A DNA stretch of 64,000 nucleotides from a virus, in the IMG/VR virus record IMGVR_UViG_3300029928_000198. One strand, given 5' to 3'. Every line of letters starts with the position of its first letter. Position 1 is the first letter of the stretch. The notes under the pieces are model-generated. The model saw only the letters and a list, made by a program, of their open reading frames with translations. It ran no database searches and was not told where the DNA came from. Of this stretch, positions 46,517 to 62,889 are shown in pieces. A program made the position numbers and the translations under genes.

Positions 46517-46587
46517 CAAACCTCACCCCTTTCCGAACGGTTTTCGGGGGTTTTTTGACCCCTTTCCGAACATACCCCTTTCCGAAC
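46501..46587. repeat. Four copies of CCCTTTCCGAAC
   Basis: At 46501, 46527, 46560 and 46576. Confidence 0.9.
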
Positions 46588-47394
46588 GCTTATCGCATCG
46601 TTGTAGAGGCGCATGTATTCGCTGTAACGGTCCTTCGTTCCCTTGTAGCGGTAGTACTCGACGGGTTCCCCGTCCTTGTTGTAGCGGATGGTCGGCTCGT
46701 CCTCCCTCTTCTTGAGTTCGGCGATGAATGCGGAGGTGGACATGCCGAGGATGTTCTCCGCGACGAAAGACAAGGACTTGCCCGCACGGGCGAAGTTGAA
46801 GATCATGTCCTCGGAGTAGATCTTCGTGGTGCGCCCGTCCTTGGTCTTGGCGGGGTCCAGAACGACGCGGCCCTTGGGGAACTTGTCCACATCCTCGGCG
46901 AAGGCGAAGCGGACGGGACGGCTGCAGTACTTGCCGTCCAGCTTGCGCGTGTACATGCCCGATTTGGTGTTGGCCTTGAGCTTGACGCGCTCCTCCTGTC
47001 CCGCCCAAGTCTTGATGTTGTTGAACACCTGACCGATTCCTGTCTCGGGGGTGCTGGATGAGTTCACGTAGCGAATCATGACCCCTCTGTCGCCCAGACG
47101 CTTGACGATGGTGTTCATGTCGTCAACATCCCTAGAGATACGGGACTCGTCTCTGGCCACGACCATGGTTATCCCCTCGTCGCCCTCGAAGATGGTGCCC
47201 ATGAGTGCTCTCCACTGGGTGCGCTTGGTGTTCCCTGCGGACATCTTCTCGATGAAGACATCGACGATGGTGACGTCGTGCTCCTCGCACCATGCCCTCA
47301 TCTGACGGACTTGAGTTTCAGGGTCCTGATCCTTGTCGTCGGTGGAAACCCTAGCGTAGAGGAGTGCTCTTGCTCCGGTGTACTTCTCGACCAT
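46516..47394 (-). CDS. Serine recombinase (resolvase/integrase family)
   Basis: YARVST catalytic Ser, Q..Q, SAG...R, SRISRD. Confidence 0.92.
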   Translation of the reverse strand: MVEKYTGARALLYARVSTDDKDQDPETQVRQMRAWCEEHDVTIVDVFIEKMSAGNTKRTQWRALMGTIFEGDEGITMVVARDESRISRDVDDMNTIVKRLGDRGVMIRYVNSSSTPETGIGQVFNNIKTWAGQEERVKLKANTKSGMYTRKLDGKYCSRPVRFAFAEDVDKFPKGRVVLDPAKTKDGRTTKIYSEDMIFNFARAGKSLSFVAENILGMSTSAFIAELKKREDEPTIRYNKDGEPVEYYRYKGTKDRYSEYMRLYNDAISVRKGVCSERGQKTPENRSERGEV

Positions 47395-47903
47395 CGCTCG
47401 TCCCCTCCGTCGGACTCGGAGGAATCCGCTCTGATGCGCGTTTCCCCTAGGTTCTCGTCTTCGTTTTGCGGTTCGGCGGAGGGTTCGTCGGAAACGGCGT
47501 TCTCCGAGGGTTCGGGTTCGCAGATGGTGGTCTGTACCATCTCGGCGTCGGTCGGGGTTTTAGCGACCGCTTCCGCGTCGTCCTCCGCCTTCTCGTCCCC
47601 TTCCTCGGGGACGATGCGGAATCCGAACTCCTTGTCGGGTTCCGATTCCCACATCGAAGCCACGAGGGAAAGTGCGTCGAAGAGCGATCTCCCCCTGTCG
47701 GAGATTGAGCAGTACACCTTGTTGCTGTACGGTACGGGGGATACGGAAACGAATCCCTTCTCTATCAGGATGTCCAGCTTCCTCTTCGAGCTGGTGTTGG
47801 AGTATATGGCGGTCTTGGATGCTCCATGCACATCGTGCAGTGCGCCGAGCAAAGAAAGCATACACGTGTCGCATGGCGTCAGGGTGTTCGGACTCTGCTT
47901 CAT
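47298..47903 (-). CDS. wHTH protein with acidic tail
   Basis: SKTAIY...KRKLDILIEKGFV...ISDRGR. Confidence 0.7.
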   Translation of the reverse strand: MKQSPNTLTPCDTCMLSLLGALHDVHGASKTAIYSNTSSKRKLDILIEKGFVSVSPVPYSNKVYCSISDRGRSLFDALSLVASMWESEPDKEFGFRIVPEEGDEKAEDDAEAVAKTPTDAEMVQTTICEPEPSENAVSDEPSAEPQNEDENLGETRIRADSSESDGGDERWSRSTPEQEHSSTLGFPPTTRIRTLKLKSVR

Positions 47904-48124
47904 GCCCTCCCCTCCATGAATCCGCTTCCGAAGCCGTCCGACCCCTCATAGGCCTCTTCGAGGGCGGGCATTTCGCGGGCGTAAATCGCCATGCGGTCTC
48001 CGTCCACGATGATCTGGGCGTTGGGGTGCTCTGCCTTGTATCCGTCGATGATCCTCTTTATCTCCGGGACGGTATCGCGGAATGTCGCAAGGATCGTTTC
48101 GCGTGTGGTGTTCGTCGCAGTCAT
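47900..48124 (-). CDS. Small hypothetical protein
   Basis: 74 aa, ATGA-coupled, AGGAGG RBS. Confidence 0.7.
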   Translation of the reverse strand: MTATNTTRETILATFRDTVPEIKRIIDGYKAEHPNAQIIVDGDRMAIYAREMPALEEAYEGSDGFGSGFMEGRA

Positions 48125-49350
48125 TGCGTTACCTCCTGTGTTTTCTCTTCATGGGAAGGGGTTTCGGAATCGGTTTTCGCGTCGCCTTGGGGCTGCGCGG
48201 TCTTCTTGGACCTGCCGGCGGAGGTCTTCCTCGCGCCTGCGCGTCCGGTGGACTTCGATGCCTTCTTGGCTCCGACCTTCTTCTTAGAAGCCCCCGTGCT
48301 TTTCGTGGCCGTCCTGCCGGCCTTCTTCCTGACGGCGGCAATCACCTCGGATGCCTTGTCGGCGATCTCCGCAAGGCGTGCGGGGTCCTCCGCAAGCGGC
48401 TGAGGGTTGTCGGGCTGGTCGTACTGGTCGTAGCCGAAAAGACCCGCATAGTCCTCTTCCGACTGGCTGCGGATTTCAGAATGATGGGCGACTGCTTCGT
48501 TCCCCTTGGGGCCGGGAATCTGCTCCACGGCCCTGCGCCCTGCGTTGCGGGGTACGATGGGGCGTATCGCTTCGCGGGTCCCCAAGGGGATGATGCTGGG
48601 CCTAGGCTCGCGGAAGTTCGAATCGTCCTCGTCGGTCACGGGGATGATTATCGGCTCGTCCTCGGGGATGTCGTCGGACGTGTCCAGAGGCTCATCGATC
48701 TCGTCGTCCTCGGGAATGTCATCCTCGGACATCTGGTCCTGAGGGGTCTGAGAATAGAGGCTCTTGAGGTCTTCCAGCTGCTTGCGGAGCGCGTCGATCT
48801 CGTCCTTCAGGCCAGCCGTCTCGTCGTCTTGGAGGTAGTCGGCATAATCGCCTTCCTCAGGCTCTTCCTCGACGTCTTCGTGCTCCTCTTCTTCAGGCTC
48901 CTCGTCTTCGGAATCCGCGTTGGAATCCTCGAATCCCCCTTCGACGCCCATCTCCTCGTAGTAGGGGTTCAGGGCGTCCGCAAGCATCGAAACGTAGTCG
49001 TCCTTGGACAGGATGGCGTTGCGGATGGACGTGTCGCATAGCTCAAGGTCCTCAAGTGTGGATTCGCACCATTGGCCGTGGAGGTCAATGTCGTCCGTCA
49101 TGGTCTTCGGAAGCGCAGGCTCCTTCAGGATCTTCCGAGTGGTCATCAGGGAATTCTGGACTACGGGTTTGGCAAGTCCGATCATCCTTGCGACCTGCTC
49201 AAGCAGGACGGTATCGGATTCTCCGGAAGGCGCGATGGACTCCTTGTACTGGTGGAGCGCGGAGTTGACCATCACCACATGGATGTGGGCCTTGAATGCG
49301 TCACCCAGAAAGCGTGCAAGGATGGGCGTCCCCCTCTTGGCCTCGGTCAC
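48121..49350 (-). CDS. Protein with helical N-terminus, long acidic region and K-rich tail
   Basis: GTG start 49350 with AAGGAGGT RBS and GTGA overlap. Confidence 0.75.
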   Translation of the reverse strand: MTEAKRGTPILARFLGDAFKAHIHVVMVNSALHQYKESIAPSGESDTVLLEQVARMIGLAKPVVQNSLMTTRKILKEPALPKTMTDDIDLHGQWCESTLEDLELCDTSIRNAILSKDDYVSMLADALNPYYEEMGVEGGFEDSNADSEDEEPEEEEHEDVEEEPEEGDYADYLQDDETAGLKDEIDALRKQLEDLKSLYSQTPQDQMSEDDIPEDDEIDEPLDTSDDIPEDEPIIIPVTDEDDSNFREPRPSIIPLGTREAIRPIVPRNAGRRAVEQIPGPKGNEAVAHHSEIRSQSEEDYAGLFGYDQYDQPDNPQPLAEDPARLAEIADKASEVIAAVRKKAGRTATKSTGASKKKVGAKKASKSTGRAGARKTSAGRSKKTAQPQGDAKTDSETPSHEEKTQEVTQ

Positions 49351-49526
49351 TGGAAGACCTCCTTGGTTCTCAGGGGAATCATGGACCATCCGCTTCCAGC
49401 CATGAATCCGCTGGCCCTGTATCCGCACTCGAAGCATCTGAACGTCCCCATGAAGGGGTTGCGGGGGTGGATGGACATCTCGCCCACGGCCTTGCAGCAG
49501 GGGCAAACGATGATGTTTCCGCTCAC
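49347..49526 (-). CDS. Small zinc-finger protein
   Basis: CPCC...CFECG; GTGA overlaps at both ends. Confidence 0.6.
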   Translation of the reverse strand: MSGNIIVCPCCKAVGEMSIHPRNPFMGTFRCFECGYRASGFMAGSGWSMIPLRTKEVFQ

Positions 49527-50140
49527 TGGACCGCCCCCTCGATGGGAATGAGGAAGACGCACCTGTCCGTGTCGATGCGGAGGACATCCCCTAGGATGGA
49601 AGCGGAGGATATGTCGAAGATTCCCGAAGTTTCGGAGCAGTCAGACACTTCGACCCACGATTCGGAGCAGTCGGTGCAAATCGACAGGCCGCATCCCGCA
49701 TCCATGCGGAAGTAGTCCATGTCGTCCTCTCCGTCGATTCCTTCGGCATCGACCTTGACAAATCCATCGGGCGAATCGATCCATGTCATCTCGACGGCCG
49801 AAACGATCCTCTCGGCTTCCGATGCCGAAATCGAAGAGATGCATCCCGATCCGACTGAGAAAGGCTCGCACTCCATCTCGAATGTGGGGAATGCCACCAT
49901 GAAGCCGTCAATGCAGTAGACAACGGCCATCCTGTCCTCAATCTCTATGACGGAAACCCCGTCGTAGCGGAGGATGTCGCCGGGTTCGTCGTCGCAAGGG
50001 ATGCGGAGGACGGAGCCGTTCTGACAGGGAAGCGAAATGTCCTGCCAGACGTAGCGTCCCAAGGAGCAAAGGACGTCGTGGTACTCCGTGGATATGGCGT
50101 CGCATATCTCCATCAGGCCCGAGGCATGACCGAAGTTCAT
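49523..50140 (-). CDS. Acidic beta-rich hypothetical protein
   Basis: 205-aa ORF, ATGA-coupled. Confidence 0.7.
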   Translation of the reverse strand: MNFGHASGLMEICDAISTEYHDVLCSLGRYVWQDISLPCQNGSVLRIPCDDEPGDILRYDGVSVIEIEDRMAVVYCIDGFMVAFPTFEMECEPFSVGSGCISSISASEAERIVSAVEMTWIDSPDGFVKVDAEGIDGEDDMDYFRMDAGCGLSICTDCSESWVEVSDCSETSGIFDISSASILGDVLRIDTDRCVFLIPIEGAVQ

Positions 50141-50397
50141 AGGCTCAGCCTCATTATCTCGGCGGACAGTGTGTCCAGAAGCGTCACTCCAGACTCGATG
50201 AGTCCAATGGTGGAATCCCTCATCCTGACGAGTTCCGCCAGCTCATCGACGTCCTCGAAGCCGTTCAGGCAACGGTAGTGCTTGTTGATGCGGTCGGAGC
50301 AGAGCGAAACCCTCTGGGCCGCGTTGTACATCTCCTTGGACAGATTCCTGATCTTGGGATACGGATTGTAGCTCTCGTAAGGCATTAGCTCGTTCAT
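50137..50397 (-). CDS. Small helical hypothetical protein
   Basis: 86 aa, ATGA-coupled. Confidence 0.7.
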   Translation of the reverse strand: MNELMPYESYNPYPKIRNLSKEMYNAAQRVSLCSDRINKHYRCLNGFEDVDELAELVRMRDSTIGLIESGVTLLDTLSAEIMRLSL

Positions 50398-51641
50398 TGA
50401 TAGCCCTCCAATGGGTGAACTGCTGTCTCCTTGGGGTGGGCCTTGGCGGTCTGCTGACTAGCCTCGGCAAAAGAATCAAGGGACATCTGGGTGCGCATCA
50501 TCTGGGCGTTGGTGTCGTTGGACTGAACCTTCAGGAGGTTCGCGCTGATCTGCACCTGCCTAGCCGAGAAGTCCAGCTGCATCTGCTGAGCGCGGGACAT
50601 GACGGCCATGGTGGAGATCATCTCGTCCATGACGGCCCTCAGTCCGTGAAGCTCTTCGAAGAGCTGTTGGGTCGAAATCTCCTGACTCGCGGCCTTGGAC
50701 TCGATGTCCATGATGCGTGTCGGAAGGTTCGACATAATGCGCAGCTTCTCGTTGAAAAGCGGGTCCTCGGAGTGCTCCATCTCCAGCTCGGGCTGGCCCT
50801 TGGAGGTATCGACGATGAGGTCCGCGTTTGGGTCGTACTGTTCGATGTCGAAGTGCTTGCAGAGCGGGTGGTTCTCCCACGCGATGTGCAGGCGTCCGTT
50901 GAAGTTCTCGTTCGGGGTGAGAACCCATCCGTTGATGGCTAGGGCGTACTCGATGTACTCCGCACGCTGGCGGAAAAGGTCCATGATCTCGGCCTTGGTC
51001 GTGTACACCGAAGGGTCGTAGTAGAGGCGTCCGGGGCTGAGGTAGAGGTACTGGCTTCCGGTGGAGGGGAACCAGCGGTAAGAGAATGCGACCTCCTGAC
51101 CGAACATCCTGAGGCTTCCGCGCCTCTGAAGTCCGGACCTGAGGACCTTCTTGACCTCGTCGCTGACGTATCCGAGGGTGTAGCCATCGGGGTCGGCTAT
51201 GCGATCCATCTCTCCTACGGCATTCACCGTATAGGCGAACGTCCCATCGAGATGGGCTTCGGCGAATCCGTCGGGGCATTCTTTAGCGACCGAAATGCCG
51301 TGGGTTTCTAGGCTCGGAGGGGCCGTCCGACCCCTCATTGATGCAAAGGGGGCCTCTTTCTCAGCCGTCCGCTTTTCTGACCCCCCTTTAGGGGGGTCAG
51401 CCTTCGTGGTCTTGATAGAGTCGGACGGAACGCGGAAAAGACGGGGGTTGTACGCCTTAGGCCGTCCGTTCTCGATGTAATAGTCCTCGACCAACTCGCC
51501 GAAGACGATCAGATTGTCGATGATCTTGTTGACCTTCGACTTGCCGATACTGAGCTTGCTGGCCGTCCATGTTACGCTCTTTCCGGAAAGGAGCCAATTG
51601 CGTACCTGCACCTCTTCCGAGGTAAGCGCACGGTGCACCAA
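50394..51641 (-). CDS. wHTH-containing putative replication initiator
   Basis: N-terminal wHTH, repeat-rich linker, AHL..., HIAWENHPL, DTSKGQPELE, C-terminal coiled coil; next to an iteron-like array. The CDS is solid; the function is inferred. Confidence 0.5.
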   Translation of the reverse strand: MVHRALTSEEVQVRNWLLSGKSVTWTASKLSIGKSKVNKIIDNLIVFGELVEDYYIENGRPKAYNPRLFRVPSDSIKTTKADPPKGGSEKRTAEKEAPFASMRGRTAPPSLETHGISVAKECPDGFAEAHLDGTFAYTVNAVGEMDRIADPDGYTLGYVSDEVKKVLRSGLQRRGSLRMFGQEVAFSYRWFPSTGSQYLYLSPGRLYYDPSVYTTKAEIMDLFRQRAEYIEYALAINGWVLTPNENFNGRLHIAWENHPLCKHFDIEQYDPNADLIVDTSKGQPELEMEHSEDPLFNEKLRIMSNLPTRIMDIESKAASQEISTQQLFEELHGLRAVMDEMISTMAVMSRAQQMQLDFSARQVQISANLLKVQSNDTNAQMMRTQMSLDSFAEASQQTAKAHPKETAVHPLEGYQ

Positions 51642-51828
51642 TCAAAGCACCTCCGGGCGGTTGCTAACACCACTGGTACCCGTCCGTCCGAAAGAGGCCC
51701 CCTCATTGACCCTCTTTAGGGCCTCATTAGCCTCTTTCGTCCGAGCGGTTTTTCCTATTACGTAGTAATAGGAAGGGGCCGTCCGAAGGCCGTCCGTTAA
51801 GCCGTCCGAGCGGACGGATAGCGGACGG
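51319..51828. repeat. Iteron-like (G)CCGTCCG array with two perfect hairpins (origin candidate)
   Basis: At least 10 copies in both orientations; 11-bp stem at 51377-51400; 10-bp AT-rich stem at 51752-51774. Confidence 0.65.
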
Positions 51829-52384
51829 GCTGTTTCGGACATGAAAATGAAGGGCGTCCGGCTCGAAAAAACGGAAATGGGATGCTCGAAATCTGTCGCC
51901 GGAACGCCCTTGTGAAGACGCGAAATCGTCTGCTTGTATTCGACGATTGACGGATTGCTTTGGGTGATAAAAAACGAATCGAACCCAAGCAGACTTGAGC
52001 AGGCGACCTCGCATACGCTGTGAGATCCGCCGAATGGGAATGTCGGCGAAGTGGTGTTGCGTAGGTTCCGAGGGTTCATCCTGTCGTGTCTCCACGACAA
52101 ACAGACTCACGCCTCAGTCAGTTCGAGGACTGGAATTGGGATTTTCCAGTCAGATTAACAATTGTTTGTAGATTGCTTACCCCGTGATTCGGAAATTAAT
52201 AGAGCCCTATGAGTCCTGACGGTGTCCCACGGTCCGGGCGCAGAGATGCGCTCATGGACCGTTATCGATCCTACAGCCCAAATGTGACCTATCCATTCCG
52301 AGTCACGGCTCCGCAACCCGTGCATCCAATCATTGCCGAGCCGTACCAAAGCGTTTGATGTTTGTCGGAACATAAATCAGCCAA

Positions 52385-52479
52385 GGGGTTTTTAACCCTT
52401 TCCGAACACTTCGGACCAATGGCCACATAGAATGACGAACAACCCCTTTCCGAACACTCCGATGATGTCGGAAAGGGGG
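52385..52479. repeat. Second CCCTTTCCGAAC cluster
   Basis: Direct copies at 52396 and 52444, inverted partial copy at 52467-52479. Confidence 0.85.
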
Positions 52480-52496
52480 CAAACGGTTTGAAAATC

Positions 52497-54071
52497 TCAA
52501 GCCGTCAAGACCTTGCGCATCCTGCCGCCGATGCGCTCCTGCGCCTTCAGGATCCGCTGCGTGTTGACATTGATGTACCTGTTGAGGGTCGTATCGAGCT
52601 TCACATGCCTCATCATTATGCGAATCATGTTCTGGTCAACGCCGTCCTCGTAGAGGGATGTCGCGTAATATCTCCGGAAGCAGTGGCATGAGAAGCGGAA
52701 TCCCAACCTATCCGAGAACCGCCTTATCATCGACGCTATGCCCTCCGGAGTGAACGGCTTGCCAGCATTGGTTCCGCTGTCGCAAACGATCAGACGTCCG
52801 TACGAGAAATCCCCGCATCCCTCCAAGACCCCTGCCCTGTATTCGAGGTACTGGTCAATGAAGTACCTCGTATCCTCGTCCAGCATCAGCTCCGATTCCT
52901 TGCCGCTATGCCCATGGCCCTTCCCGCAAACGTGGAGCGTCCTGTCACCCACATCCGAAACCATGAGGTTCACCATCTCGGACTTGCGGAGGCCCATGAG
53001 CGACCCGAGAACAACGACGATCCGTTCTGTAGGGTCCGCATTCTGGACGATCTCGGCCCACTGGTCATCGGATAGGAAAATCCTCGACTGTACTATGCCC
53101 TCGTTCCACCGCATCAGACGGTCGGAGTAGGGATTCCTCCCTATCGCATGCAGACAGAACTGGCCGAAGACGGTAAGGTAGGTCCTCAGCGTCAGCTCGG
53201 ACACCCGATCCTGCTCGTAGCGCACATCCCTCAGGTCCTCCACTGTAATGTCCTCCAGCTCGAAATCGCCGATAACGGATTCGATAACCCTTATCGCGTA
53301 CACGACGGAGTTGACTTGGGACTGACAGGTGGACGGACGGTAGCGGAATTCGATCATGTGGTCGTAGTAGCTCCGTATCCTGTCGCCGAACTTGCCCGAG
53401 AAGACGCGCGAAGACCAGATGCCGAACGTGCGGAGGTCGTGGAACTGAGCCTGAACGGCCCCTGCGCCGCTCCATTCGGCGAAACGGGCAAGGGAATTCG
53501 CCACCTTGTTCCCGCATCCCGGGTCCCTGCCGACCTGCTCCGAAACCTCCAGAATGTGGTCGGCTCCGATGTCCGACGGAACGATGCCGGGGTGCGTGCG
53601 AAGCAGATGGAGGAGACCTCTTCTGGCCAGCCCCCGATGGGTTCCGGCATTCATCGGACCCATCCCGTGGGAAACCATCCATTCGGCCCAGTCGTCCAGC
53701 TCATCATCGTAAGGACAACCGATGCCGGATGTGTCGCATTCCCCGCGGCATACCGATTCGTATTCGCGGTAGACGTCGCGTCCCGTCAGGAATCCGATGA
53801 AATCGCCGAAGTATCTGAGGTACCGCTGCTTGTTCATCTCCGTTGACGGGGGAAGCTCGCCGTAGACGGTGTCAAGGTCTTCCGTGACAACCCCCTCGGG
53901 GTCGTACCTTCCCAGAAGCTCGAAGCACGTTCTGGCGCATCTGACCTTCAGCCGCACCGTCGATGGCGCATTGTCGCGCCGAAGCCGTTCAGCCCATCCA
54001 TACAAATCTGCGTCGATCTGACAGTCTGCCGTGTGAATCCCTCCAAGGGGTTTCCGGAGCAGGCGTCCCAT
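52497..54071 (-). CDS. Tyrosine recombinase/integrase with an extended, repeated N-terminal region
   Basis: GLRKSE (R), CGKG (K), HCFRR (HxxR), MRH (H), RYI (Y). Confidence 0.92.
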   Translation of the reverse strand: MGRLLRKPLGGIHTADCQIDADLYGWAERLRRDNAPSTVRLKVRCARTCFELLGRYDPEGVVTEDLDTVYGELPPSTEMNKQRYLRYFGDFIGFLTGRDVYREYESVCRGECDTSGIGCPYDDELDDWAEWMVSHGMGPMNAGTHRGLARRGLLHLLRTHPGIVPSDIGADHILEVSEQVGRDPGCGNKVANSLARFAEWSGAGAVQAQFHDLRTFGIWSSRVFSGKFGDRIRSYYDHMIEFRYRPSTCQSQVNSVVYAIRVIESVIGDFELEDITVEDLRDVRYEQDRVSELTLRTYLTVFGQFCLHAIGRNPYSDRLMRWNEGIVQSRIFLSDDQWAEIVQNADPTERIVVVLGSLMGLRKSEMVNLMVSDVGDRTLHVCGKGHGHSGKESELMLDEDTRYFIDQYLEYRAGVLEGCGDFSYGRLIVCDSGTNAGKPFTPEGIASMIRRFSDRLGFRFSCHCFRRYYATSLYEDGVDQNMIRIMMRHVKLDTTLNRYINVNTQRILKAQERIGGRMRKVLTA

Positions 54072-54263: not shown

Positions 54264-56528
54264 TCAGAGGACTCTGCGCACGATTGCTGCTATGAGGACG
54301 ATTCCGACGATCGCGACAACCACGATTCCGATGATGCCGCGTCCGGAATCCTCTTCCTTCTCCTCTTCTCCGGCTCCGACATCGATGCCGTATTCGGCGG
54401 TCGAAACGTCGCCGTAGATGTTGGTGATCCTCAGGGTCACCTTGTAGTGTCCCGGCTCGGTATAGGTGTTGTATGCGATGGCATCCTCGGAGGTGTTGCC
54501 GTCGCCGAAGTCCCATTCGATCTTGTACTTCCCCTGAGAATCCGTCGCATCGAAGTAGTACAGCCCGTTGGAGTCAACGGACGTGATCGTAGCGGATGCG
54601 GTCGGAACCGAGGTGAATTCGAGCGGGGGGACGCCCTTGGCGTAGAGCGTCACATCTGCATCCAGCTTCTTGGACGAGTCGTACTTCTGGGTGAAGGCCG
54701 CGTCGTAGAACCATCCCTCGAAGACGCCTTCCACTATGATCGGGGTGTAGACGACTCCGCATGACCCTTTGGGGACCGACAGCGTGGAATGCTCCTGACC
54801 CTCGACCACGAATGTGATCGTAATCTGGGGGACGACCCATGCGGAGTACGCGGTATGGGTCGCCTCATGCTTCACCTTCTCGCCGATCTGAACGAATTTG
54901 CCGTCCACATACCATCCGATGTGCTTGTAGCCCGCCTTGATGGACGGATTGTCGGTGTACGTGTTAAGGTCGGGATAGGTGGTGTTCGCATCGACGATCT
55001 TCAGAGTCGAAGGCAATCCATCGACGCTTCCGCCGATGTCTTTCAATGCCGAATGGTCGAAAATGATGTTCTTCGGCGCGACCCAGAGAGCTTTGGCCGT
55101 ATGCGAATCGGTGGTGGCAACCTTGGCTCCGATGGCGTATTCCGTACCATTCACCATCCAACCTATGTGCTTCCAGCCCGCCTTGATCGAGGGGTTGCTG
55201 GAGTATGTGTTAAGGTCGGGGTATGTGGTGTTGGCGTCCTCTATTTTTATTTTCGCGGGCAAGCCCGTTGCATCTCCTCCTGCGCCGGTAAGGTCGCTGT
55301 AGTCAAAGGTTAAGGTACTGGCCGACGCCGGATCGGCGTCGAATAAAAAGGACAGGCGAGACCCAAGGTAGCTGTAGCCCCCACCGTAGCCGGCGAACAG
55401 AAAGGACAGCCCCGCGTCGGCCCCGTAGCTCCAGTCGCCGCCCACTATGAGCGCGCCGTCGGAGCTTTGGCTGTAGATATAATCTGGACCTCCTGATCCA
55501 GTATTTTCTGGAAGCCCCCACGAATCGAGCTGAGTGGAATAAGGGTATGTTCCATATCCATTGAGGCCCGAGGTCACGGAGGTCTTGGTCTTGTTCAATG
55601 TGTTCGATGTCGGATTGACATTCTGACCTGCATAAAGACCATTGGACCACCAAGCATCATCCACATATTCATATAACGAACCCCAAACATTCTCTATGAA
55701 CAGCTTTGCTCCTGTCGAACTAGCAGAACTGGTACCATAGTAAGGTCCCATGGAATCCATCCCGCCTGTTTTTGATGAGCTACTGCCACTTGCATTACCG
55801 TATCCGATCTGCGCCTGTGAATCGAAGTTCTCCATGACGCCGAGCGAGCACATCCTGTAGAGCTGATACATGTGGTAGTTCCAAAGAAGTGCCTGCCCCC
55901 CTTCCACCTTGGTATTGTGTGCATAGGTCCTGTAATCAGCCAAACTCGTAGACGCTTTCGGAGTCTGACCGGACTGAGAACCCAATGCCGATCCGCCAAG
56001 CGTTGCTTCGTATACAGCGATGCCCAGGAAATTGTACGATGTTCTGTTGACAGTGTAAGCCGATGCAAGAGTTCCGTCGGAACTATTGCTGGACATGGTA
56101 AGCGTGCTACCGTTATCGCTCGTCTTGAGATAGATCTTGGGGATACACCACATGATGTTGTAGCCCTTGCCGTCGATGCTGTCTCCGTCAATGGATTTCT
56201 TCAGATTCGACGGGTCAAGATGGCATACCATCTTTCCTGTTGAATCGAATGCCGCATAGAACGAATTGAAAGGTCCGTAGCCATTGCTATCGAACGCCCA
56301 TGATCCGCTGCTCTTGTTGATTCCGTTGACCGGAGTCGTATCGGTCAATGTCGAACCGCCCTTGGCGTACTTCGTCGTGATCGTCGAATTACTGACGGTT
56401 ATCGTGCATTTCCAATCATCCGATGCGGCATCGGACTCTTCGGAAAAGCCGATAATCGATGATGCTGAAAGCATCATGACGAGAACCGCCGTAATGGCGA
56501 ATATTCTCTTATTCGTTGAATTTTTCAT
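54264..56528 (-). CDS. DGR target: surface protein with CLec/FGE-like domain, internal VR, tandem repeats, InlB B-repeat, PKD and TM anchor
   Basis: Signal peptide; GSLYEYVDD; VGGDW...GSRL CLec end; WDFGDG; C-terminal TM; start 56528 (TGATG overlap with the RT stop). Confidence 0.9.
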   Translation of the reverse strand: MKNSTNKRIFAITAVLVMMLSASSIIGFSEESDAASDDWKCTITVSNSTITTKYAKGGSTLTDTTPVNGINKSSGSWAFDSNGYGPFNSFYAAFDSTGKMVCHLDPSNLKKSIDGDSIDGKGYNIMWCIPKIYLKTSDNGSTLTMSSNSSDGTLASAYTVNRTSYNFLGIAVYEATLGGSALGSQSGQTPKASTSLADYRTYAHNTKVEGGQALLWNYHMYQLYRMCSLGVMENFDSQAQIGYGNASGSSSSKTGGMDSMGPYYGTSSASSTGAKLFIENVWGSLYEYVDDAWWSNGLYAGQNVNPTSNTLNKTKTSVTSGLNGYGTYPYSTQLDSWGLPENTGSGGPDYIYSQSSDGALIVGGDWSYGADAGLSFLFAGYGGGYSYLGSRLSFLFDADPASASTLTFDYSDLTGAGGDATGLPAKIKIEDANTTYPDLNTYSSNPSIKAGWKHIGWMVNGTEYAIGAKVATTDSHTAKALWVAPKNIIFDHSALKDIGGSVDGLPSTLKIVDANTTYPDLNTYTDNPSIKAGYKHIGWYVDGKFVQIGEKVKHEATHTAYSAWVVPQITITFVVEGQEHSTLSVPKGSCGVVYTPIIVEGVFEGWFYDAAFTQKYDSSKKLDADVTLYAKGVPPLEFTSVPTASATITSVDSNGLYYFDATDSQGKYKIEWDFGDGNTSEDAIAYNTYTEPGHYKVTLRITNIYGDVSTAEYGIDVGAGEEEKEEDSGRGIIGIVVVAIVGIVLIAAIVRRVL
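55323..55341 (-). other. DGR target-recognition hairpin/cruciform candidate
   Basis: CGACGCCG-gat-CGGCGTCG, 8 nt downstream of the VR. Confidence 0.7.
55350..55457 (-). repeat. DGR variable repeat (VR)
   Basis: 108-nt alignment to the TR; 20 mismatches, all opposite TR adenines. Confidence 0.95.
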
Positions 56529-58003
56529 CAAATCACCCTTTTTTCCACGAGTGCAATGTAATCGCACCATGCCCTGAGTCCACGTGCCAATCTCTTGTCA
56601 TTCTCCACGCTGCGGATAAGAGGCGATACGGTGACTTTTTTCAGTCCACGCGAATCGCACCATTTCAGAATTCCATAATAGGACCAAACCGTCCCCTGTT
56701 GGGATCTGTTGAGAGAATAACCCTCATCGACGAGGATCTGGAGATTTGCACAAGCCCGCTTCATCTTCTTCTTGGTTCTCGTCCGAAGTAGCACCTTGTT
56801 GCGATAGATGCGGTAACCGACAAAATCAATTCCACGATCATCTATCGGATACACCTGCCAGTTCTCCTTCATGGTCAAGCCATATTCCTCAAACTGAGCG
56901 GCCATTATCCTGCGCATCTTGTGAAGCCATGGTTTGGAATAGCCTAGAATCAGAATATCGTCCATGTAGCGGACATAGTAGTGGCAATGGTGGATTTCCT
57001 TCATAGGATGGTCCACCGCATATGACAGGACAAGATTCGCAATATCAGGACTCAAACGGTTTCCAAGAGGGATTCCGGGAAGCTCGTAGTCATCGACGAT
57101 TTTATCGATGAACCATAGGACGTCAGGGTCCTTTATCACTCTGCGGACAGCTTCTTTGGCAACCGTTTTGGGCATTGAGGGGAAACACTTCCTCACATCG
57201 ACCTGCAACGCATAGCGGATTCTGGCATCGTTCTGGATGTACTTCTGAACATCCGCAATAGCCGTATGTGTGCCGTGTCCCTTCCTCGATGCATGTGTTT
57301 GTGGTATCAAACGTCTCTGGATGTATGGTTCGACGACCAATGCCACCGCCCAATGAGCTATCCTGTCAGGGTAGAGCGGAAGGTCGGAAACCAATCTGTT
57401 CTTGCCGTTCTCATTCTTCTCGAAGATACGGTATTCTGACGTTTCGTATGTATGATAGATGAGACTGTTCTGCAACCTCCTCAGATTGGAGTCCCGATTC
57501 TCCAAAAACTGCAAGACTTCTTCCATGTTCTTTCTAGATGAACAAGCCTTCTTAGCGGCGACCTCCAGATTCTCTATGGATGTCACCTTGGACCATAAAT
57601 TTCCAATACGCTTCATTGAAAATGCCTTGTCCTTTAACCCATGTCCGACGGTCTCACCATGCATCCCCGCACAGGATACTAGCCGGAACTGATTTTGTTT
57701 AACTGTTTCACACTCTGGTGAGGTCGAAATCACTATGAATTTTGGTGAATGATCGGGTTCGTTCAGGCGAGACCCATTGTTGCTGTTGCCCCCATCGTTG
57801 TCGTTGTTCAGATAGGACAGCCCCGCGTTGGCCCCGTTGTTCCAGTTGCCGCCCACTATGAGCGCGTTGCCGGAGCGCACGAAGAGGAAAGGGTCTGAAT
57901 GTGAATCGACCTGTCCAATTAAGGACTGTAAAGAAGTGAGGTGGGGAAGGCCTGTCGCCTCCGCTATCGCTAAGATGCCGTGGGTCTTCCCCAGAGAGGT
58001 CAT
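56528..58003 (-). CDS. DGR reverse transcriptase (core starts MKRIGNL at 57616; frame open from 58003 through the TR)
   Basis: GIPLGNRLS, YVRYMDD, IDFVGY, DRIAH; no group II intron X or endonuclease domain. Confidence 0.92.
   Translation of the reverse strand: MTSLGKTHGILAIAEATGLPHLTSLQSLIGQVDSHSDPFLFVRSGNALIVGGNWNNGANAGLSYLNNDNDGGNSNNGSRLNEPDHSPKFIVISTSPECETVKQNQFRLVSCAGMHGETVGHGLKDKAFSMKRIGNLWSKVTSIENLEVAAKKACSSRKNMEEVLQFLENRDSNLRRLQNSLIYHTYETSEYRIFEKNENGKNRLVSDLPLYPDRIAHWAVALVVEPYIQRRLIPQTHASRKGHGTHTAIADVQKYIQNDARIRYALQVDVRKCFPSMPKTVAKEAVRRVIKDPDVLWFIDKIVDDYELPGIPLGNRLSPDIANLVLSYAVDHPMKEIHHCHYYVRYMDDILILGYSKPWLHKMRRIMAAQFEEYGLTMKENWQVYPIDDRGIDFVGYRIYRNKVLLRTRTKKKMKRACANLQILVDEGYSLNRSQQGTVWSYYGILKWCDSRGLKKVTVSPLIRSVENDKRLARGLRAWCDYIALVEKRVI
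57761..57868 (-). repeat. DGR template repeat (TR)
   Basis: AAC-rich (12 AAY codons, 30 adenines); reads NALIVGGNWNNGANAGLSYLNNDNDGGNSNNGSRLN. Confidence 0.95.
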
Positions 58004-58107
58004 TGCTTGTGCCTCCCGTCGTCAAAAAGCTGTTTCTCATTCAGGTATTGGACATCGGAAACGGATGCTCCCCGTACGTTTCCGAATCTCATCTCTATGC
58101 ATTCCAT
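58000..58107 (-). CDS. 35-aa ORF coupled to the TR-RT frame
   Basis: MECIEMRFGNVRGASVSDVQYLNEKQLFDDGRHKQ; GAGGA RBS; ATGA overlap at 58000-58003. Confidence 0.4.
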   Translation of the reverse strand: MECIEMRFGNVRGASVSDVQYLNEKQLFDDGRHKQ

Positions 58108-58116
58108 GTCGATTCC

Positions 58117-59583
58117 TCAGTACAGATACGTCAGCACGGACAGTAAGGCGAATAAACCTGCCAGAATCAGCACGATCGGAGCGGGGTAGAGGACCGCGTA
58201 CACAACGACGCATAGCAACGCCAGAACAGCGAACAGCAGGAAGAGCCATCCGTGCTTCTCGAAGAATCCCTCGGAAGGCTCGTCTTCCTCGACGATCTCG
58301 AATTCTCTGGTGGATGTGTCGTATCTGATGTAGCAGCACTTCGAACCCGCATCGTTCTGCGCTTCCAGAACGATGGTGTACCTTCCGTCCTTGGAGAAGA
58401 CGTGGGATGCGCTGTACCTGTCGGACCCGTCGAAATCGGGCGTCGATGTCGCGCCGTCCCTCCAATCGATCGTGATGCTCTTGGCATCCTTCACGACTGC
58501 GGACAGAAGGATCTTCTTGGAATCCGCCGGGTCGGGCATCACGGTGACGTCGGAAACCGACGGGACCGTGGTATAGACCATATCGGCGAAGACCTTGAGA
58601 ACGACCTTCTTGGAGGCTTCGACGGCCTGACCGTCGGCCAGACCCTTCACTGTCACGGTGAAGGCGAACTCCTTCACCGCGTCATCGCCTGCAGCTCCTG
58701 CGGGGAAATCCACCACTGAGGGGTCGAAAACGATGCTCTGGCCGTCGATGGACTTGACAAGACCCTCGGGAAGCCCAGACGTATCGAAGGTGCATTCAGT
58801 GACGGTCAGACCTGAAGCAGTGTCGGCATTGGTCTTCACAGTGTAGGTGTTCTTGGCGGGGTCGGCTTCGGATTGCTTGGTCTCGATGACATCGTCGGAG
58901 ATGATCATCAGACCGCTTCCGATGACGATGCTGACGGTAACGGCGACGGACTCCTCCTTCAGGGTGCTTCCCGAATCAACGGCCCTGTTGACCGCCGATA
59001 TGACCGGCGACATCGTAGATGACGCGACATCGACCGGGACATCCTTCTTCAGGAAGAGCCTCTTCTCGTTTTCGTCCCAACCGACCCACTCGTTCTCGAT
59101 GATGCTGCAGGAAACCTCGGTGGCGGTTCCTGCGGATGCTTCCGAAACCTCGGGCTGGTAGACGATAGTTCCTGCTTTCGCACCTCCGATGATTCCGCGC
59201 ACGATCTCCTTGGACGATGAGCCGTCCACGGTGACGTGGGGGTGGACCATGAAGGCAATGCGCTGGGATGCGACCTGACTGAGGCTTCCCTCTTCGGAGG
59301 TCCATCTGGCCGTTATCGTCGTGGCCAGCGAACCGGTCAGATCGACCGCGTCGAAGGATGCAGTCATGATTCCGTCGGTGAAGGTCATCCCCTCAAGCGC
59401 AGAAGCAGTGATGACGCTGTCCAGATTGGTCTTGGGTTCATACGTGAACGTGTCGCCCGTGCGCATGTCCACGACATAGCTGTCGCTCGGCTCCGCATCG
59501 CTCGGCTGAGCCGTAACCAAGGCGCATGCCAGCATGACCAGAACGGCCATGACGGCGAATGTCCCCTTCGATCTTCCTTTCAT
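58117..59583 (-). CDS. Surface protein (Ig-like/PKD) with C-terminal TM hairpin
   Basis: Signal peptide, MRTGDTFTYEPKTNL, IDWRDG PKD-like, FFEKHGWLFLLF tail; start re-called to MKGRSK. Confidence 0.85.
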   Translation of the reverse strand: MKGRSKGTFAVMAVLVMLACALVTAQPSDAEPSDSYVVDMRTGDTFTYEPKTNLDSVITASALEGMTFTDGIMTASFDAVDLTGSLATTITARWTSEEGSLSQVASQRIAFMVHPHVTVDGSSSKEIVRGIIGGAKAGTIVYQPEVSEASAGTATEVSCSIIENEWVGWDENEKRLFLKKDVPVDVASSTMSPVISAVNRAVDSGSTLKEESVAVTVSIVIGSGLMIISDDVIETKQSEADPAKNTYTVKTNADTASGLTVTECTFDTSGLPEGLVKSIDGQSIVFDPSVVDFPAGAAGDDAVKEFAFTVTVKGLADGQAVEASKKVVLKVFADMVYTTVPSVSDVTVMPDPADSKKILLSAVVKDAKSITIDWRDGATSTPDFDGSDRYSASHVFSKDGRYTIVLEAQNDAGSKCCYIRYDTSTREFEIVEEDEPSEGFFEKHGWLFLLFAVLALLCVVVYAVLYPAPIVLILAGLFALLSVLTYLY

Positions 59584-61127
59584 GCAAAAACCCTCCCGGC
59601 CGCTATGGCCAGAACAATGATCGCCAGAATCGCCACAAGAGCCGACTTGAAGCCGTCTCCATCGTCTTCCTCGACAGGAGCCTCCTCCTCGGTGGTCTCC
59701 ACCGTCCATCCCGATGCGCCGTACCTCAGCTCGTAATCCGTCGCTCCGGATTCCTCGGAATCCGAAACTATCACGGTAACGGTCTGGACGGCGTGCTGCT
59801 CGGGTCCGACCGTGGAAACGGCGTCCAGAACAACGGTGTACGTCCCGGCCCTGTCGGCGATACCCGACAGGATGCCGGATTCCGCATCGAACGTCAGGAA
59901 GGACAGTCCGCTTCCGGATGCCGTGATGGTCGAACTCAGGTTGGTCATCGGACGGTAGCAGAACGAATCGCCCACATGCATGCGGACCGCAGGCGGGTTG
60001 GACCAGTCGTCGCCGAAGATGGTTCCTCCGACGGACGAAACCTGTCCTCCGCTGATGGCCAGCGTGGGTCCCGCCTCGAATACCCCGTCCTTGCAGGAGA
60101 TCGCGGTCCATTTCCCGTCGGCTATGCTGTAGCTTGCGGAAAGGGTGCCGAGATACGGGTGGTAGCCGTCTATCTTGGACGGGTCAACAGCAGTCTCCGC
60201 GTAGGCGTACGTCACCCCATCGACGATGAAGGTGGCCGTGGAAGCTCCTATGACGGATGCTCCGTCCTTCAGGGCTACCGCCACGGACATGTGACCCGTA
60301 CCGTTGGTACCCCAGCGGTCGTGCTCGAACATGACGAAGCCGCAATCCAGACCCATCGCGGATGCGATGGAAACGTAGAGCGTGGCGGTGTCCTCGCAGT
60401 CGCCGTATCCGGAGTACAGCGTCTCCATCGGCGTGGTCCAGAACTCCTCCGAACCGTACTGATCGATGTCGGTCTGGTAGTCGATGGCATCCTGAACGAA
60501 TGCAAGAACGACGATGGCCTTCTGGAGGTCGGTCATCCCCTTGGTGCATCCTTCCAGCATCGATGCGACAGATGCTACGGGACCGTCGGCCTGACAGAGC
60601 CTGACCGGCGACGGTACGGAGAACGTCGCGCACCTCTGGACGGAGGCATCGCGGATGGAGGCCCTGTAGTCCTCCTCCTTCAGAGTCACCGAGATTGTCT
60701 CGGACCGGGGATAGGAAACGGAGCCGTCGGAGCCGAAAACTGGCGGACTCCACGAGAACTCCTTGGAGATTATGCCTGCTTCGGCGAAGACCGCCGTGGC
60801 TATCCTGTCGCGGTCGGCCTCGAAGGTCATGACGCTGCTCTTCTCCGCGACGTTGCCCTCGGAATCGGTCCAGCAGACGAATCTGTAGCCGTCGTTGGCC
60901 ACTGCGCGGTATTTTATGGTGTTGTTCGCCGTATCGAGGGATTTCTCCACGACCACGACGTATCCCATCCTGATGTCGTTGACATCCGGACCCATGTAGA
61001 TGGCGTCGGTCTTCCCGCCTTCGGGGTCGGGGTCCCCTCCGTTGGAATCCGAGGGTGCTCCGACCATCATCACGGCCACTATCGCGGCCACGACGATGCC
61101 GAAAAGCAGGATGTGCTGTATCCTCAT
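59580..61127 (-). CDS. Membrane-anchored transglutaminase-like cysteine protease with Ig-like domains
   Basis: FVQDAIDY...EFW..PMETL...GDCED; GHM; C-terminal TM. Confidence 0.85.
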   Translation of the reverse strand: MRIQHILLFGIVVAAIVAVMMVGAPSDSNGGDPDPEGGKTDAIYMGPDVNDIRMGYVVVVEKSLDTANNTIKYRAVANDGYRFVCWTDSEGNVAEKSSVMTFEADRDRIATAVFAEAGIISKEFSWSPPVFGSDGSVSYPRSETISVTLKEEDYRASIRDASVQRCATFSVPSPVRLCQADGPVASVASMLEGCTKGMTDLQKAIVVLAFVQDAIDYQTDIDQYGSEEFWTTPMETLYSGYGDCEDTATLYVSIASAMGLDCGFVMFEHDRWGTNGTGHMSVAVALKDGASVIGASTATFIVDGVTYAYAETAVDPSKIDGYHPYLGTLSASYSIADGKWTAISCKDGVFEAGPTLAISGGQVSSVGGTIFGDDWSNPPAVRMHVGDSFCYRPMTNLSSTITASGSGLSFLTFDAESGILSGIADRAGTYTVVLDAVSTVGPEQHAVQTVTVIVSDSEESGATDYELRYGASGWTVETTEEEAPVEEDDGDGFKSALVAILAIIVLAIAAGRVFA

Positions 61128-61227
61128 CGAAAATCACCCCTCGGGGCAATATCCCACGTCGGTGCCGGATTGAGGGGGCTTGCGCCCCCATGGTGATTTC
61201 CGGCAAACGTACCGACGCAGGGGTCGA

Positions 61228-62889
61228 TCAGAGCTTGTCCTTCACCGCGTCGATGAGTCCTCCGATGTCGTTGTAGACGAAGCAGAGCACGGCAAGAGCG
61301 GCGAACACGATCATCACGATGATGACGTACGGACTCTGGATTCCGAAGTAGAAGAACGCGACGGCGCAGAGGATGGCCAGAATCGCGAATACGAGGAACT
61401 GGAATCCGTGCTCGTCGAAGAAGGACTTCTCCTCGGATTCGGCGGGCTGCTCGGGGTTCTCAGGGGTTGCGGGGGTCTCGGGGATCTCCACGCCCTCGGC
61501 GGAGTGGAAGACCTGAGCGGTCGTGGTTCCCTGATCGTTGGTGGCGTAGATGGTGATGGTGTAGTTACCGGCCTTCGCATAGGAGTGGTATGCGCTGTAG
61601 GTGGTCTCGGTCCTGCTTCCGTTGTCCATGGAGGAGGTCTGGGTTCCGTCTCCCCAGTCGTAGACGACCTTGTAAGCTCCGACGATGTAGGAGGACAGGC
61701 TGATGCCGGTTCCTGCGGAGGTCAGGACATTGGTGCTGACGCTGTTGACGGTAGGGGCGGTGGCGAAGGCCAGAGCCTTGTAGACGGTGAGGGTGGTGGA
61801 AGCGGTCTCCTCCACACTCGTCTCATTCTGATTGCCGCTTGTGACGGTACCTGTCGCCTTGAGGGTAACGGTATAGACGGCCTTGGTGGCGTCGCCTTTG
61901 ACGATGGTTTCGATTCCGGCGTCGGAAACTCCCTCGACCGTAGCGACAGTGCTGTTGGCATTGGCAATCGTGATGACATCCTTCAGAGCGTTGGTATCTT
62001 TGGTGGCGGTAAGCTCGTAGGAGATGGACTGCGCTCCGGTGACTTTATCCCAGTTGGTGCTGAACTTGATCTCGGTAGGAGCGTTCTTGTCGCCCTCGTA
62101 GGTGTAGTCGGCTGCAGGCGCAACGATCGCAACGGTTTCGAAGACCTGATACTTGACATTGACAGAGGCGGTGTCGGGGTTGTCGGGGTTCTTGAGGGTG
62201 ACCTTGAATCCGTAAGTCGCTTCATTGTTCTTGACATCGTCCTTGGGGGTGATGACGAGCTTTCCATCGGCGATCGCAGCAGTGAAGAGCTCGGAACCGT
62301 CGGTCAGCTTCTCATCGCCCGTTCCGGCATAGGTGCCGATGGTAATGTTCACATTGGAAGGTCCGCCGTAGCTGATCTCGATAGCATTCTGGGCCTTGCC
62401 CTTGATTCCGTATCCGGTGACGTCGGTGGGAAGCTCGATCTTCTCCACGACAGTGAAAACGAACTTCTGGGTCGCAGTCTGGGTTAGGTTCTTGTCGGTG
62501 TTGTGGGTCCACTTGGCGGTTATGGTATAGACGTATGTACCAGTCGTGGAGAAAGTGATCTCGAACTTCTTTCCGGAGTTCGAGCCATCGGTGAAAGTAG
62601 GGGTAGCTGTAGCCGTGTTTCCGGTTCCGGCAGGAGCACCGGTGATCTCAACGGTACCATCAGCACTATCGAGGTTCGTCTTGATATTGTCGTAGGTGAA
62701 CTTCTGACCGATGGCCATGTTCACGGCGTAGACCTGATTGATCTTGTCTCCCGTGTTGTCGCTGACGCCTCCATAGACGCCGGCGTCCGAATCGGACGGG
62801 ATGCACACCGCGAAGGCGCAGATGGCGAACATCGCCACGATGGCCATGGCCAGAGCTTTCTGGCCCTTGAATGCAGTAGCATTTTTCAT
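61228..62889 (-). CDS. Surface protein (Ig-like/PKD) with C-terminal TM hairpin, paralog of 58117-59583
   Basis: MAIGQKFTY...KTNL, YDWGDG, FFDEHGFQFLVF tail. Confidence 0.88.
   Translation of the reverse strand: MKNATAFKGQKALAMAIVAMFAICAFAVCIPSDSDAGVYGGVSDNTGDKINQVYAVNMAIGQKFTYDNIKTNLDSADGTVEITGAPAGTGNTATATPTFTDGSNSGKKFEITFSTTGTYVYTITAKWTHNTDKNLTQTATQKFVFTVVEKIELPTDVTGYGIKGKAQNAIEISYGGPSNVNITIGTYAGTGDEKLTDGSELFTAAIADGKLVITPKDDVKNNEATYGFKVTLKNPDNPDTASVNVKYQVFETVAIVAPAADYTYEGDKNAPTEIKFSTNWDKVTGAQSISYELTATKDTNALKDVITIANANSTVATVEGVSDAGIETIVKGDATKAVYTVTLKATGTVTSGNQNETSVEETASTTLTVYKALAFATAPTVNSVSTNVLTSAGTGISLSSYIVGAYKVVYDWGDGTQTSSMDNGSRTETTYSAYHSYAKAGNYTITIYATNDQGTTTAQVFHSAEGVEIPETPATPENPEQPAESEEKSFFDEHGFQFLVFAILAILCAVAFFYFGIQSPYVIIVMIVFAALAVLCFVYNDIGGLIDAVKDKL

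Follow-up and report, generated by a model that had tools for sequence, protein, structure and literature searches.

A diversity-generating retroelement that very probably rewrites the head of a membrane-anchored surface protein in a methanogen-related lineage, with a candidate homing hairpin inside the coding sequence

A stretch of 64,000 nucleotides filed as IMG/VR virus record IMGVR_UViG_3300029928_000198 (hereafter the window) carries a diversity-generating retroelement (DGR), a cassette in which a template repeat (TR), a spacer of 147 nt, a reverse transcriptase (RT) and a target gene follow one another in that order, all genes lying on the minus strand (Table 1). The variable repeat (VR) lies within the target gene, which encodes a predicted surface protein with an N-terminal head of C-type lectin (CLec) fold, a stalk and a C-terminal anchor. 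The stop codon of the RT and the start codon of the target overlap as TGATG at 56528, so that both the order TR-RT-target and the coupling of the two genes are as given in a preliminary description of this DNA, which had been made from its letters.

Table 1. Features of the retroelement and of its surroundings (window coordinates).
Feature	Coordinates	Strand	Basis and remarks
Template repeat (TR)	57764..57876	-	113 nt, 28 mutable adenines; alignment to VR
TR-to-RT spacer	57617..57763	-	147 nt; presumed part of the DGR RNA
DGR reverse transcriptase	56528..57616	-	362 aa; Pfam RVT_1; YMDD box; motif 4 IPLGNRLSP
Target gene, type-I surface protein	54264..56528	-	754 aa; translation, ATG at 56528
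N-terminal head, CLec fold	55338..56420	-	Residues 37-397; AF2 model and structure comparison
Variable repeat (VR)	55353..55465	-	Residues 356-392 of the 754-aa target; 16 diversified codons
GC hairpin, candidate DGR target-recognition element	55323..55341	-	8-bp stem, 3-nt loop; DNA fold and covariation
Stalk, three beta-rich Flg_new-like repeats	54630..55316	-	Residues 405-633; Pfam, sequence, model
PKD domain	54378..54590	-	Residues 647-717; Pfam and beta-sandwich in model
C-terminal transmembrane helix and RRVL tail	54270..54338	-	Hydropathy and model helix 733-753
Upstream surface-protein genes (PKD, transglutaminase-like, PKD)	58117..62889	-	Pfam; synteny in other species
Tyrosine integrase, directly downstream of target, outside the DGR	52497..54071	-	Pfam Phage_integrase 1.6e-15

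The pairing of template and variable repeat had been described as an alignment of 108 nt with 20 mismatches, all at TR adenines, and this pattern is exact. Positions 57761-57868 and 55350-55457 (minus strand) align without gaps over 108 nt, 20/20 mismatches fall on TR adenines and 20 of the 30 adenines of the TR are altered in the VR; by simple arithmetic, the probability that 20 random mismatches would all fall on A is about 0.278^20, or about 1e-11. Self-comparison with a filter for adenine bias refined the limits of the repeat to 57764-57876 and 55353-55465, a true repeat of 113 nt with 19 mismatches, 18 of them at a TR adenine. Upstream of the 108-nt alignment 8 further nucleotides match with one G>A difference at 55459, and the final codon of that alignment (AAC in the TR, TCC in the VR) is placed outside the exchanged segment because its serine is invariant in 16/16 population variants. 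The non-adenine change at 55459 puts Asp in place of Gly directly before the first variable codon and is common to 3/16 members of the protein cluster considered below. The VR is followed by 362 residues of the target and therefore does not stand at the protein C-terminus, in agreement with the earlier placement at residues ~358-393 with ~360 aa behind. Enumeration of the adenine substitutions that the TR codons permit gives zero stop-capable codons, as had been claimed; stop-free codons of the AAY type are a general trait of DGR templates and no special adaptation to internal VRs. The coding capacity of the TR comes to about 7e16 variants at the DNA level and about 1e16 at the level of the protein. 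The hunt for further VRs that the preliminary description had proposed was run on the non-A positions of the TR within the 64-kb window, where no second VR was found.

The repeat has evidently been rewritten among close relatives. The 90%-identity cluster of the target has 34 members, of which 15 were aligned with the window protein (n=16). Outside the VR no column of this alignment has more than three alleles, and those present track two or three lineages. Within the VR there are 16 variable columns, which are exactly the 16 A-bearing TR codons, 14 of them with 4-9 alleles and two with 2-3, and each of the 16 cluster members carries its own VR variant. Where a TR codon restricts the outcome, the residues observed are confined to those that A-to-N substitution allows: I/V/L/F/M at ATA, F/Y/C at TAT, G/D/A/V at GAC and GAT, and S/G at AGC. 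A metagenome contig (L056; related loci are numbered with L throughout) shares 98.4% identity with the window along 10.2 kb and shows zero differences across 56600-58100, hence an identical TR, spacer and RT, whereas its VR differs from that of the window at 22/113 positions, 21/22 of them at TR adenines. From these comparisons the DGR has evidently been diversifying in nature. It might alternatively be a relic, recently inactivated in the window strain and with a VR diversity left behind by past activity, a reading that the single non-adenine VR/TR difference (G>A at 55459) would favour. Such a relic is quite unlikely in our view, as the RT reading frame is intact with its catalytic YMDD, the hairpin described below is intact, TR and RT show 100% identity between two strains that differ in their VRs at 21 adenines, and every one of the 16 cluster members has a VR variant of its own.

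The RT is of DGR type, as the preliminary description had it. Its best relative in the PDB is 8ub7_A (a 328-aa chain titled 'Reverse transcriptase'), which it matches over its full length with E 3e-33 (query 2-325 against chain 3-315), while group II intron and retron RTs are much weaker matches (E 1e-12 to 1e-10). From the chain length, we take 8ub7_A to be the Bordetella phage RT, bRT. The window enzyme holds YMDD and the equivalent of bRT Arg74, and has Leu at the position of bRT Ile181; these two bRT residues are the ones that Handa and co-workers are said to have found important in 2018. The start of the RT was set at the ATG at 57616 because its relatives all align from residue 1-3. In the window an open frame begins with an ATG at 58003, spans the TR and continues into the RT, and an RT with a TR-encoded N-terminal extension was considered and rejected as a conserved feature, since about half of the related lineages have this frame closed or shifted (L004, which is the second-closest lineage, L023, L033, L037, L038 and L044). 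The open frame through the TR is probably a side effect of the TR copying coding sequence.

Hydropathy of the target reveals two hydrophobic segments only, one at residues 8-30, which is signal-like and lies behind a basic n-region, and one at residues 726-754 with a Kyte-Doolittle peak of 3.4. A single N-terminal signal-like segment and a single C-terminal transmembrane segment are what the membrane anchoring proposed earlier calls for. The full-length AlphaFold2 (AF2) model (pLDDT 85.5) comprises a signal helix, a head at residues 39-396 and an acidic, low-confidence linker before the transmembrane helix. The third stalk repeat is recognised as Flg_new (PF09479; 29.1 bits, cut-off 27) and the two preceding repeats of ~82 aa from sequence and model; the PKD domain is matched by PF18911 (E 1.9e-10) and PF00801 (E 3.2e-7). 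The isolated head (residues 37-413, so that head-model residue 1 is protein residue 37) was modelled with an alignment of 36 relatives and reached pLDDT 94.4 and pTM 0.93. Foldseek against the PDB ranks DGR variable proteins first, TaqVP (5vf4) with E 2e-8, then Mtd variants, TvpA and formylglycine-generating enzymes (FGEs). By VIA-align the head superposes on TaqVP 5vf4 with Z 22.7 and a root-mean-square deviation of 3.3 A over 255 residues (head-model residues 43-360), with Z 13.9 on TvpA, about 13 on Mtd and 11-12 on FGEs. Among predicted viral structures the head resembles gut-phage and crAss-like 'tail collar fibre' proteins (TM-score 0.75-0.77). Of the earlier expectation, a CLec fold with the VR residues on one face, it is the fold that the model bears out (pLDDT 94.4; Z 22.7 to TaqVP). 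Membership in the CLec group is by fold only, because Pfam gives no CLec-type model: at E <= 0.01 the target matches only PKD and Flg_new, and neither an FGE-sulfatase nor a DUF1566-type match was found in it. The structural alignments stop at head-model residue 360-367, just past the VR. As modelled, then, the VR is internal only relative to the whole protein and still ends the CLec domain as it does in classical targets, and the model supports placing the CLec head at the membrane-distal, N-terminal end of a type-I surface protein.

Past the end of the VR by 11 nt, and inside the open reading frame (ORF), lies the sequence CGACGCCG-ATC-CGGCGTCG (55341-55323), a GC hairpin whose in-frame translation contributes to F-D-A-D-P-A-S, with which the head-stalk linker begins. 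It is read in frame because the ORF runs on for another 360 codons past the VR. The hairpin follows a GC-rich 3' end that is common to TR and VR, GGGTCTCGCCTG. Folded as single-stranded DNA it is predicted to reach -10.7 kcal/mol (z -4.3), with 0/200 shuffles as good. The flank of the TR has no equivalent fold; a remnant of the 5' arm and the loop is present there and the 3' arm is missing.

Relatives of the cassette were drawn from species-representative genomes, metagenomes and viral contigs and screened for adenine-biased repeats. The hairpin is present at 15/15 of the RT-adjacent loci with an internal VR. Its stem is mostly 8-9 bp long, includes a single mismatch in L033 and L001, and varies in sequence between loci (TCGCCGCCG/CGGCGGCGA, CGACGCGG/CCGCGTCG and TCGACGCTG/CAGCGTCGA). 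When 17 distinct sequences are laid out as a helix of 9 pairs, 98% of the cells are paired, against only 24-59% in slid registers; three pairs show compensatory changes, in 8 cells, and 0/500 shuffles reach this score. One of the covarying pairs is formed by the third positions of two codons (GCC..CCG, GCG..CCC or GCC, GCT..CCA), where the change in the Ala codon is always synonymous and that in its partner (Pro, Ala or Ser) is synonymous in part of the loci. Such third-position covariation, as read from the aligned sequences, is hard to explain through protein selection alone. Conversely, none of about 38 paralogues lacking the stem has an RT nearby, and several of them retain F-D-A-D-P with both stem and RT absent (e.g., L010, L012, L057 and L074).

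These observations also bear on whether the hairpin is a cis element of the DGR at all. It could be a by-product of the conserved peptide D-A-D-P-A-S, or an RNA or transcriptional signal unrelated to homing, and the width of distribution of F-D-A-D-P in the family, including paralogues without a DGR, together with the invariance of 5/9 stem pairs, would fit such an origin. The RT-less paralogues just named, however, keep the peptide without the stem, one pair covaries at third codon positions, on which the amino-acid sequence places little constraint, two viral relatives (L042 and L050) have a GC hairpin at the equivalent spot after the stop codon, and the TR copy has lost the 3' arm. We therefore hold a by-product or unrelated signal to be very unlikely and a candidate role in homing to be the better account of the hairpin.

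Five copies bear the hairpin without an adjacent RT (L014, L024, L026, L031 and L036). For L026 the matching TR lies elsewhere in its own genome, on a different contig, and 17/24 mismatches are at A; L024 matches the TR of a related species, with 22/26 mismatches at A; by this pattern both look like remote targets. The genome that holds L026 is G001, in which the TR of L100 matches the adjacent target L035 as well as the remote, hairpin-bearing paralogue L026. The ~25 head paralogues of G001 were considered as remote targets, and a TR match was obtained in L026 only. The other three copies carry hairpins of 9-10 bp of the post-VR type (L014:2569-2628, L031:7237-7296 and L036:7345-7404) and are candidate remote DGR targets, with neither an RT nor a TR within the fetched DNA.

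The side on which the TR lies tracks the position of the VR in the protein, without exception among about 16 non-redundant loci. Targets that continue for 270-970 residues past the VR have the TR ~2.5 kb upstream, in the order TR-RT-target; those that end 4-6 residues past it have the TR 150-300 nt downstream, in the classical order target-TR-RT (viral contigs L050 and L052-L055; L042). In L042 and L050 a GC stem of 5 bp with a 4-nt loop stands after the stop codon, and in L052-L055 a stem of >=5 bp after the stop codon was not found.

Taken together, the window very probably carries an accessory-free DGR, with a TR-RT core, in a host-associated methanogen lineage of Methanomethylophilaceae type, where it hypermutates 16 codons at the end of the CLec head of a surface protein. 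The named relatives of RT and target are metagenome-assembled genomes (MAGs) of Methanomethylophilaceae, Methanomassiliicoccales and a few other Euryarchaeota, the first two being the nearest, in keeping with the archaeal setting proposed earlier; the same archaeal cassette also turns up in several bins titled as bacteria, which are probably binning errors. The proposal of a hypervariable head displayed on the archaeal surface is likewise supported by the RT, the TR/VR pair, the CLec fold, the topology and the relatives.

A number of points weigh against this interpretation. Motif 4 of the RT (window 56950-57010) reads IPLGNRLSP, with SP in place of the DGR hallmark SQ ([LIV]GxxxSQ). Among the RT relatives compared (P0086-P0204), the SP form occurs in ~49 of the nearest (identity roughly 50% or more), farther relatives having IGNxTSQ, and adenine-specific mutagenesis evidently persists without the motif 4 Gln. 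An Avd-like gene is absent among the ORFs at 52-64 kb, where NCBIfam gave no match on a 110-aa ORF, and PF05635 (Avd) was not found in three related genomes. Avd accompanies 74% of DGRs and is not universal; because there is no Avd here, while BPP-1 requires it, the step of complementary DNA (cDNA) synthesis may differ from that of BPP-1. The taxon assigned to the window is that suggested by its named relatives, and activity at the present day in the window strain is suggested by variation between strains. The homing role of the hairpin is likewise putative and is argued for by position, covariation and association. Finally, the label 'adhesin' that the target had been given is a functional guess from its domains.

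A mechanism can be proposed in which the first two steps, reverse transcription and misincorporation, follow the model of BPP-1, and the later ones have support in the sequences compared here. An RNA containing the TR and the 147-nt spacer would be reverse transcribed by the RT, which would misincorporate opposite template adenines, and the resulting cDNA would replace the VR, with the 3' boundary set by the common GC-rich end GGGTCTCGCCTG. The 8-bp GC hairpin or cruciform 11 nt downstream, being missing from the TR, would mark the VR as the recipient. This element is at the same time read in frame as the D-A-D-P-A-S head-stalk linker, and the TR-RT unit sits upstream of the target and not downstream. 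The outcome would be up to about 1e16 head variants on the cell surface, whose presumed purpose is to bind a changing set of ligands, for example partner microbes, glycans from the host or the diet, or viruses.

The spacer may itself be a conserved element of the DGR RNA. It measures 114-180 nt in most related loci and up to 248 nt in three in which the VR is cut by the contig end, and it keeps conserved blocks, including one resembling ATCACAGTGAT (window 57617-57763 and its equivalents in L002-L061). A small hairpin in it (CCTCACC-N4-GGTGAAA type) shows compensatory changes at all four pairs, and this 4-pair hairpin is all that RNAalifold returns for the spacer. Rfam gave nothing at gathering scores in the window, nor were tRNA genes found there. 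With BPP-1 as the model, the spacer might also serve in priming.

The likeness to the DGR of BPP-1 (mtd-avd-TR-brt) extends to the adenine-specific transfer from TR to VR, a CLec target, a GC-rich VR 3' end followed by a GC hairpin that is missing from the TR, a TR-RT spacer of ~140 nt and, provided that 8ub7_A is bRT, an RT homologous over its full length (E 3e-33). Unlike BPP-1, the window cassette lacks Avd, has the order TR-RT-target and an RT with SP rather than SQ in motif 4, and its VR is followed by 360 residues so that the hairpin is coding; the loop is 3 nt, the host archaeal and the target membrane-anchored. TaqVP of Thermus aquaticus (5vf4) is the best structural match to the whole head, the match ending at the last CLec strand, where the VR ends. 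Identity between the two is 17%, and in the structural alignment the CLec domain closes the TaqVP chain (378-381 aa), whereas the window head precedes a stalk and a transmembrane anchor. The same head fold occurs in the tail collar fibre DGR targets of gut and crAss-like phages, and the window target shares 33-36% identity with the viral-contig relatives L050, L052 and L042, which have their own TR/VR pairs. In the viral forms, unlike the window, the head is C-terminal, any hairpin lies past the stop codon and TR and RT stand behind the target. Surface display of a DGR-diversified CLec domain is shared with Legionella LdtA and other membrane-bound cellular targets, but the polarity is inverted: the LdtA type has an N-terminal anchor and the VR at the extreme C-terminus, the window protein an N-terminal head and a C-terminal anchor.

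Several of these traits have been documented before. The TR-RT core without an accessory gene is Architecture A of Wu 2018 (PMC5758913), which makes up 29% of DGRs and which the window cassette resembles in lacking Avd. The same survey counted internal VRs in 9/34 Ig1, 9/10 Ig2 and one CLec2 DGR and stated that the initiation of mutagenic homing (IMH) sequence of internal VRs must be constrained by coding sequence (PMC5758913). Since internal VRs and accessory-free cassettes are thus on record (PMC5758913), the case is less unprecedented than the preliminary description implied. The window differs from those internal cases, which are mostly of Ig type, in its CLec head, its methanogen lineage and a coding hairpin with measurable covariation. 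Roux 2021 (PMC8144416) argued that C-terminal VRs are likely favoured since their cis elements can then be intergenic, reported that archaeal clade-5 targets are usually without recognisable transmembrane or other domains, and in a supplementary note mentioned DGRs in 'various members of the Euryarchaeota'. Unlike the clade-5 targets, the window target has a signal peptide, Flg_new repeats, a PKD domain and a transmembrane anchor, and its relatives come from animal-gut methanogens. As cited in PMC8144416, Paul et al. 2015, 2017 described DGRs of Nanoarchaeota/DPANN and of a virus of anaerobic methanotrophic archaea (ANME), which on that account share archaeal hosts and CLec-fold targets with the window. 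The RT cluster table of Roux 2021 (PMC8144416) also lists Ga0172378_1000379812 and Ga0172377_100113368, with targets under 'Phage_struct:PC_00002'; by name these match the contigs that carry L068 and L067, two sister cassettes whose VRs are internal, so that the RTs of two sister loci are already catalogued in bulk. In the literature we found no description of a DGR in Methanomassiliicoccales, Methanomethylophilaceae, methanogen adhesin-like proteins or the archaeome.

Every single principle at work here, namely internal VRs, accessory-free cassettes and DGRs in Euryarchaeota, has a precedent. What is new is the combination of a host-associated methanogen lineage, a CLec head of phage type set with inverted polarity on an archaeal stalk and anchor, a candidate recipient-site hairpin recoded as a linker with partly synonymous covariation, and an accessory-free RT of SP type. 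A wider interpretation, which we put forward tentatively and which may well prove wrong, is that gut and rumen methanogens have adopted a DGR head of phage tail-fibre type, placed it the other way round above an archaeal stalk and a C-terminal anchor, and so obtained a programmable surface receptor independent of Avd, in which the homing hairpin is recoded as the head-stalk linker, one TR may serve further paralogues, and recognition of partner cells, host glycans or viruses would be adaptive.

Adhesin-like proteins dominate the accessory genomes of gut methanogens. A DGR that rewrites the tip of an adhesin-like protein marks that tip as a ligand-binding surface under fluctuating selection, and VR variants across hosts, or libraries of head variants, could offer a handle on what gut methanogens bind. 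In the window and its relatives, the constraint to intergenic cis elements proposed by Roux 2021 appears to be met by a hairpin coded as a linker, with pairing kept partly via codon third positions, and the natural series of stem variants is material for the study of recipient-site recognition. An Avd-free RT with an SP-type motif 4 bears, in addition, on the requirements of adenine mutagenesis.

The neighbourhood of the cassette was compared with that in other species. In four of them (L002-L005) the TR/RT-target cassette is preceded by a transglutaminase-like gene and by a PKD gene of the type found at 61228 in the window. The 58117-type PKD gene is on the downstream side of the target in these four and on the upstream side in the window. 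Behind the target, an integrase, a Rep-like gene of 415 aa and a gene of 488 aa (window 46500-54071) are present in the window, L056 and L001 and not in L002-L005, and this module is probably an inserted mobile element. The presence of the tyrosine integrase and Rep-like module raises the question of whether the target is instead the receptor-binding spike of a membrane-bearing archaeal virus, a vesicle or an integrated element, the DGR serving to switch its tropism. A spike of this kind would also suit a head closest to gut-phage tail collar fibre proteins (the TM-scores of 0.75-0.77 given above), the relatives on viral contigs and the filing by Roux 2021 of the RTs of two sister loci in a cluster with 'Phage_struct' targets. 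Against this, at least four further species have the transglutaminase-like and 61228-type PKD genes adjoining the cassette, their contigs measuring 57-169 kb (11 kb in one case), and no integrase was found in the stretch fetched from them; the head family is large and rich in paralogues, a single genome of 2.1 Mb having at least 25; and no capsid or other virion genes were identified adjoining the cassette. We consider a viral or mobile spike unlikely; in our reading the locus encodes surface proteins of the cell, and a mobile element has inserted alongside it. In L003 the frame spanning the TR and continuing into the RT opens with an ATG at the final base (4499) of the transglutaminase-like ORF, and this overlap suggests a single operon.

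The head family comprises 529 representatives at 50% identity (E <= 1e-3), most of which have an N-terminal head and a long C-terminal part; the head stands at the extreme C-terminus in about 15 of the top 150 members. At least 25 head paralogues and two DGR-type RTs occur in G001, a 2.1-Mb genome titled Ruminococcus sp. CAG:579 (L006-L028, L035, L099 and L100), which looks like a mis-binned or mislabelled archaeal genome. The family also includes giant proteins with four heads each, P0219 (4156 aa) and P0223 (5182 aa).

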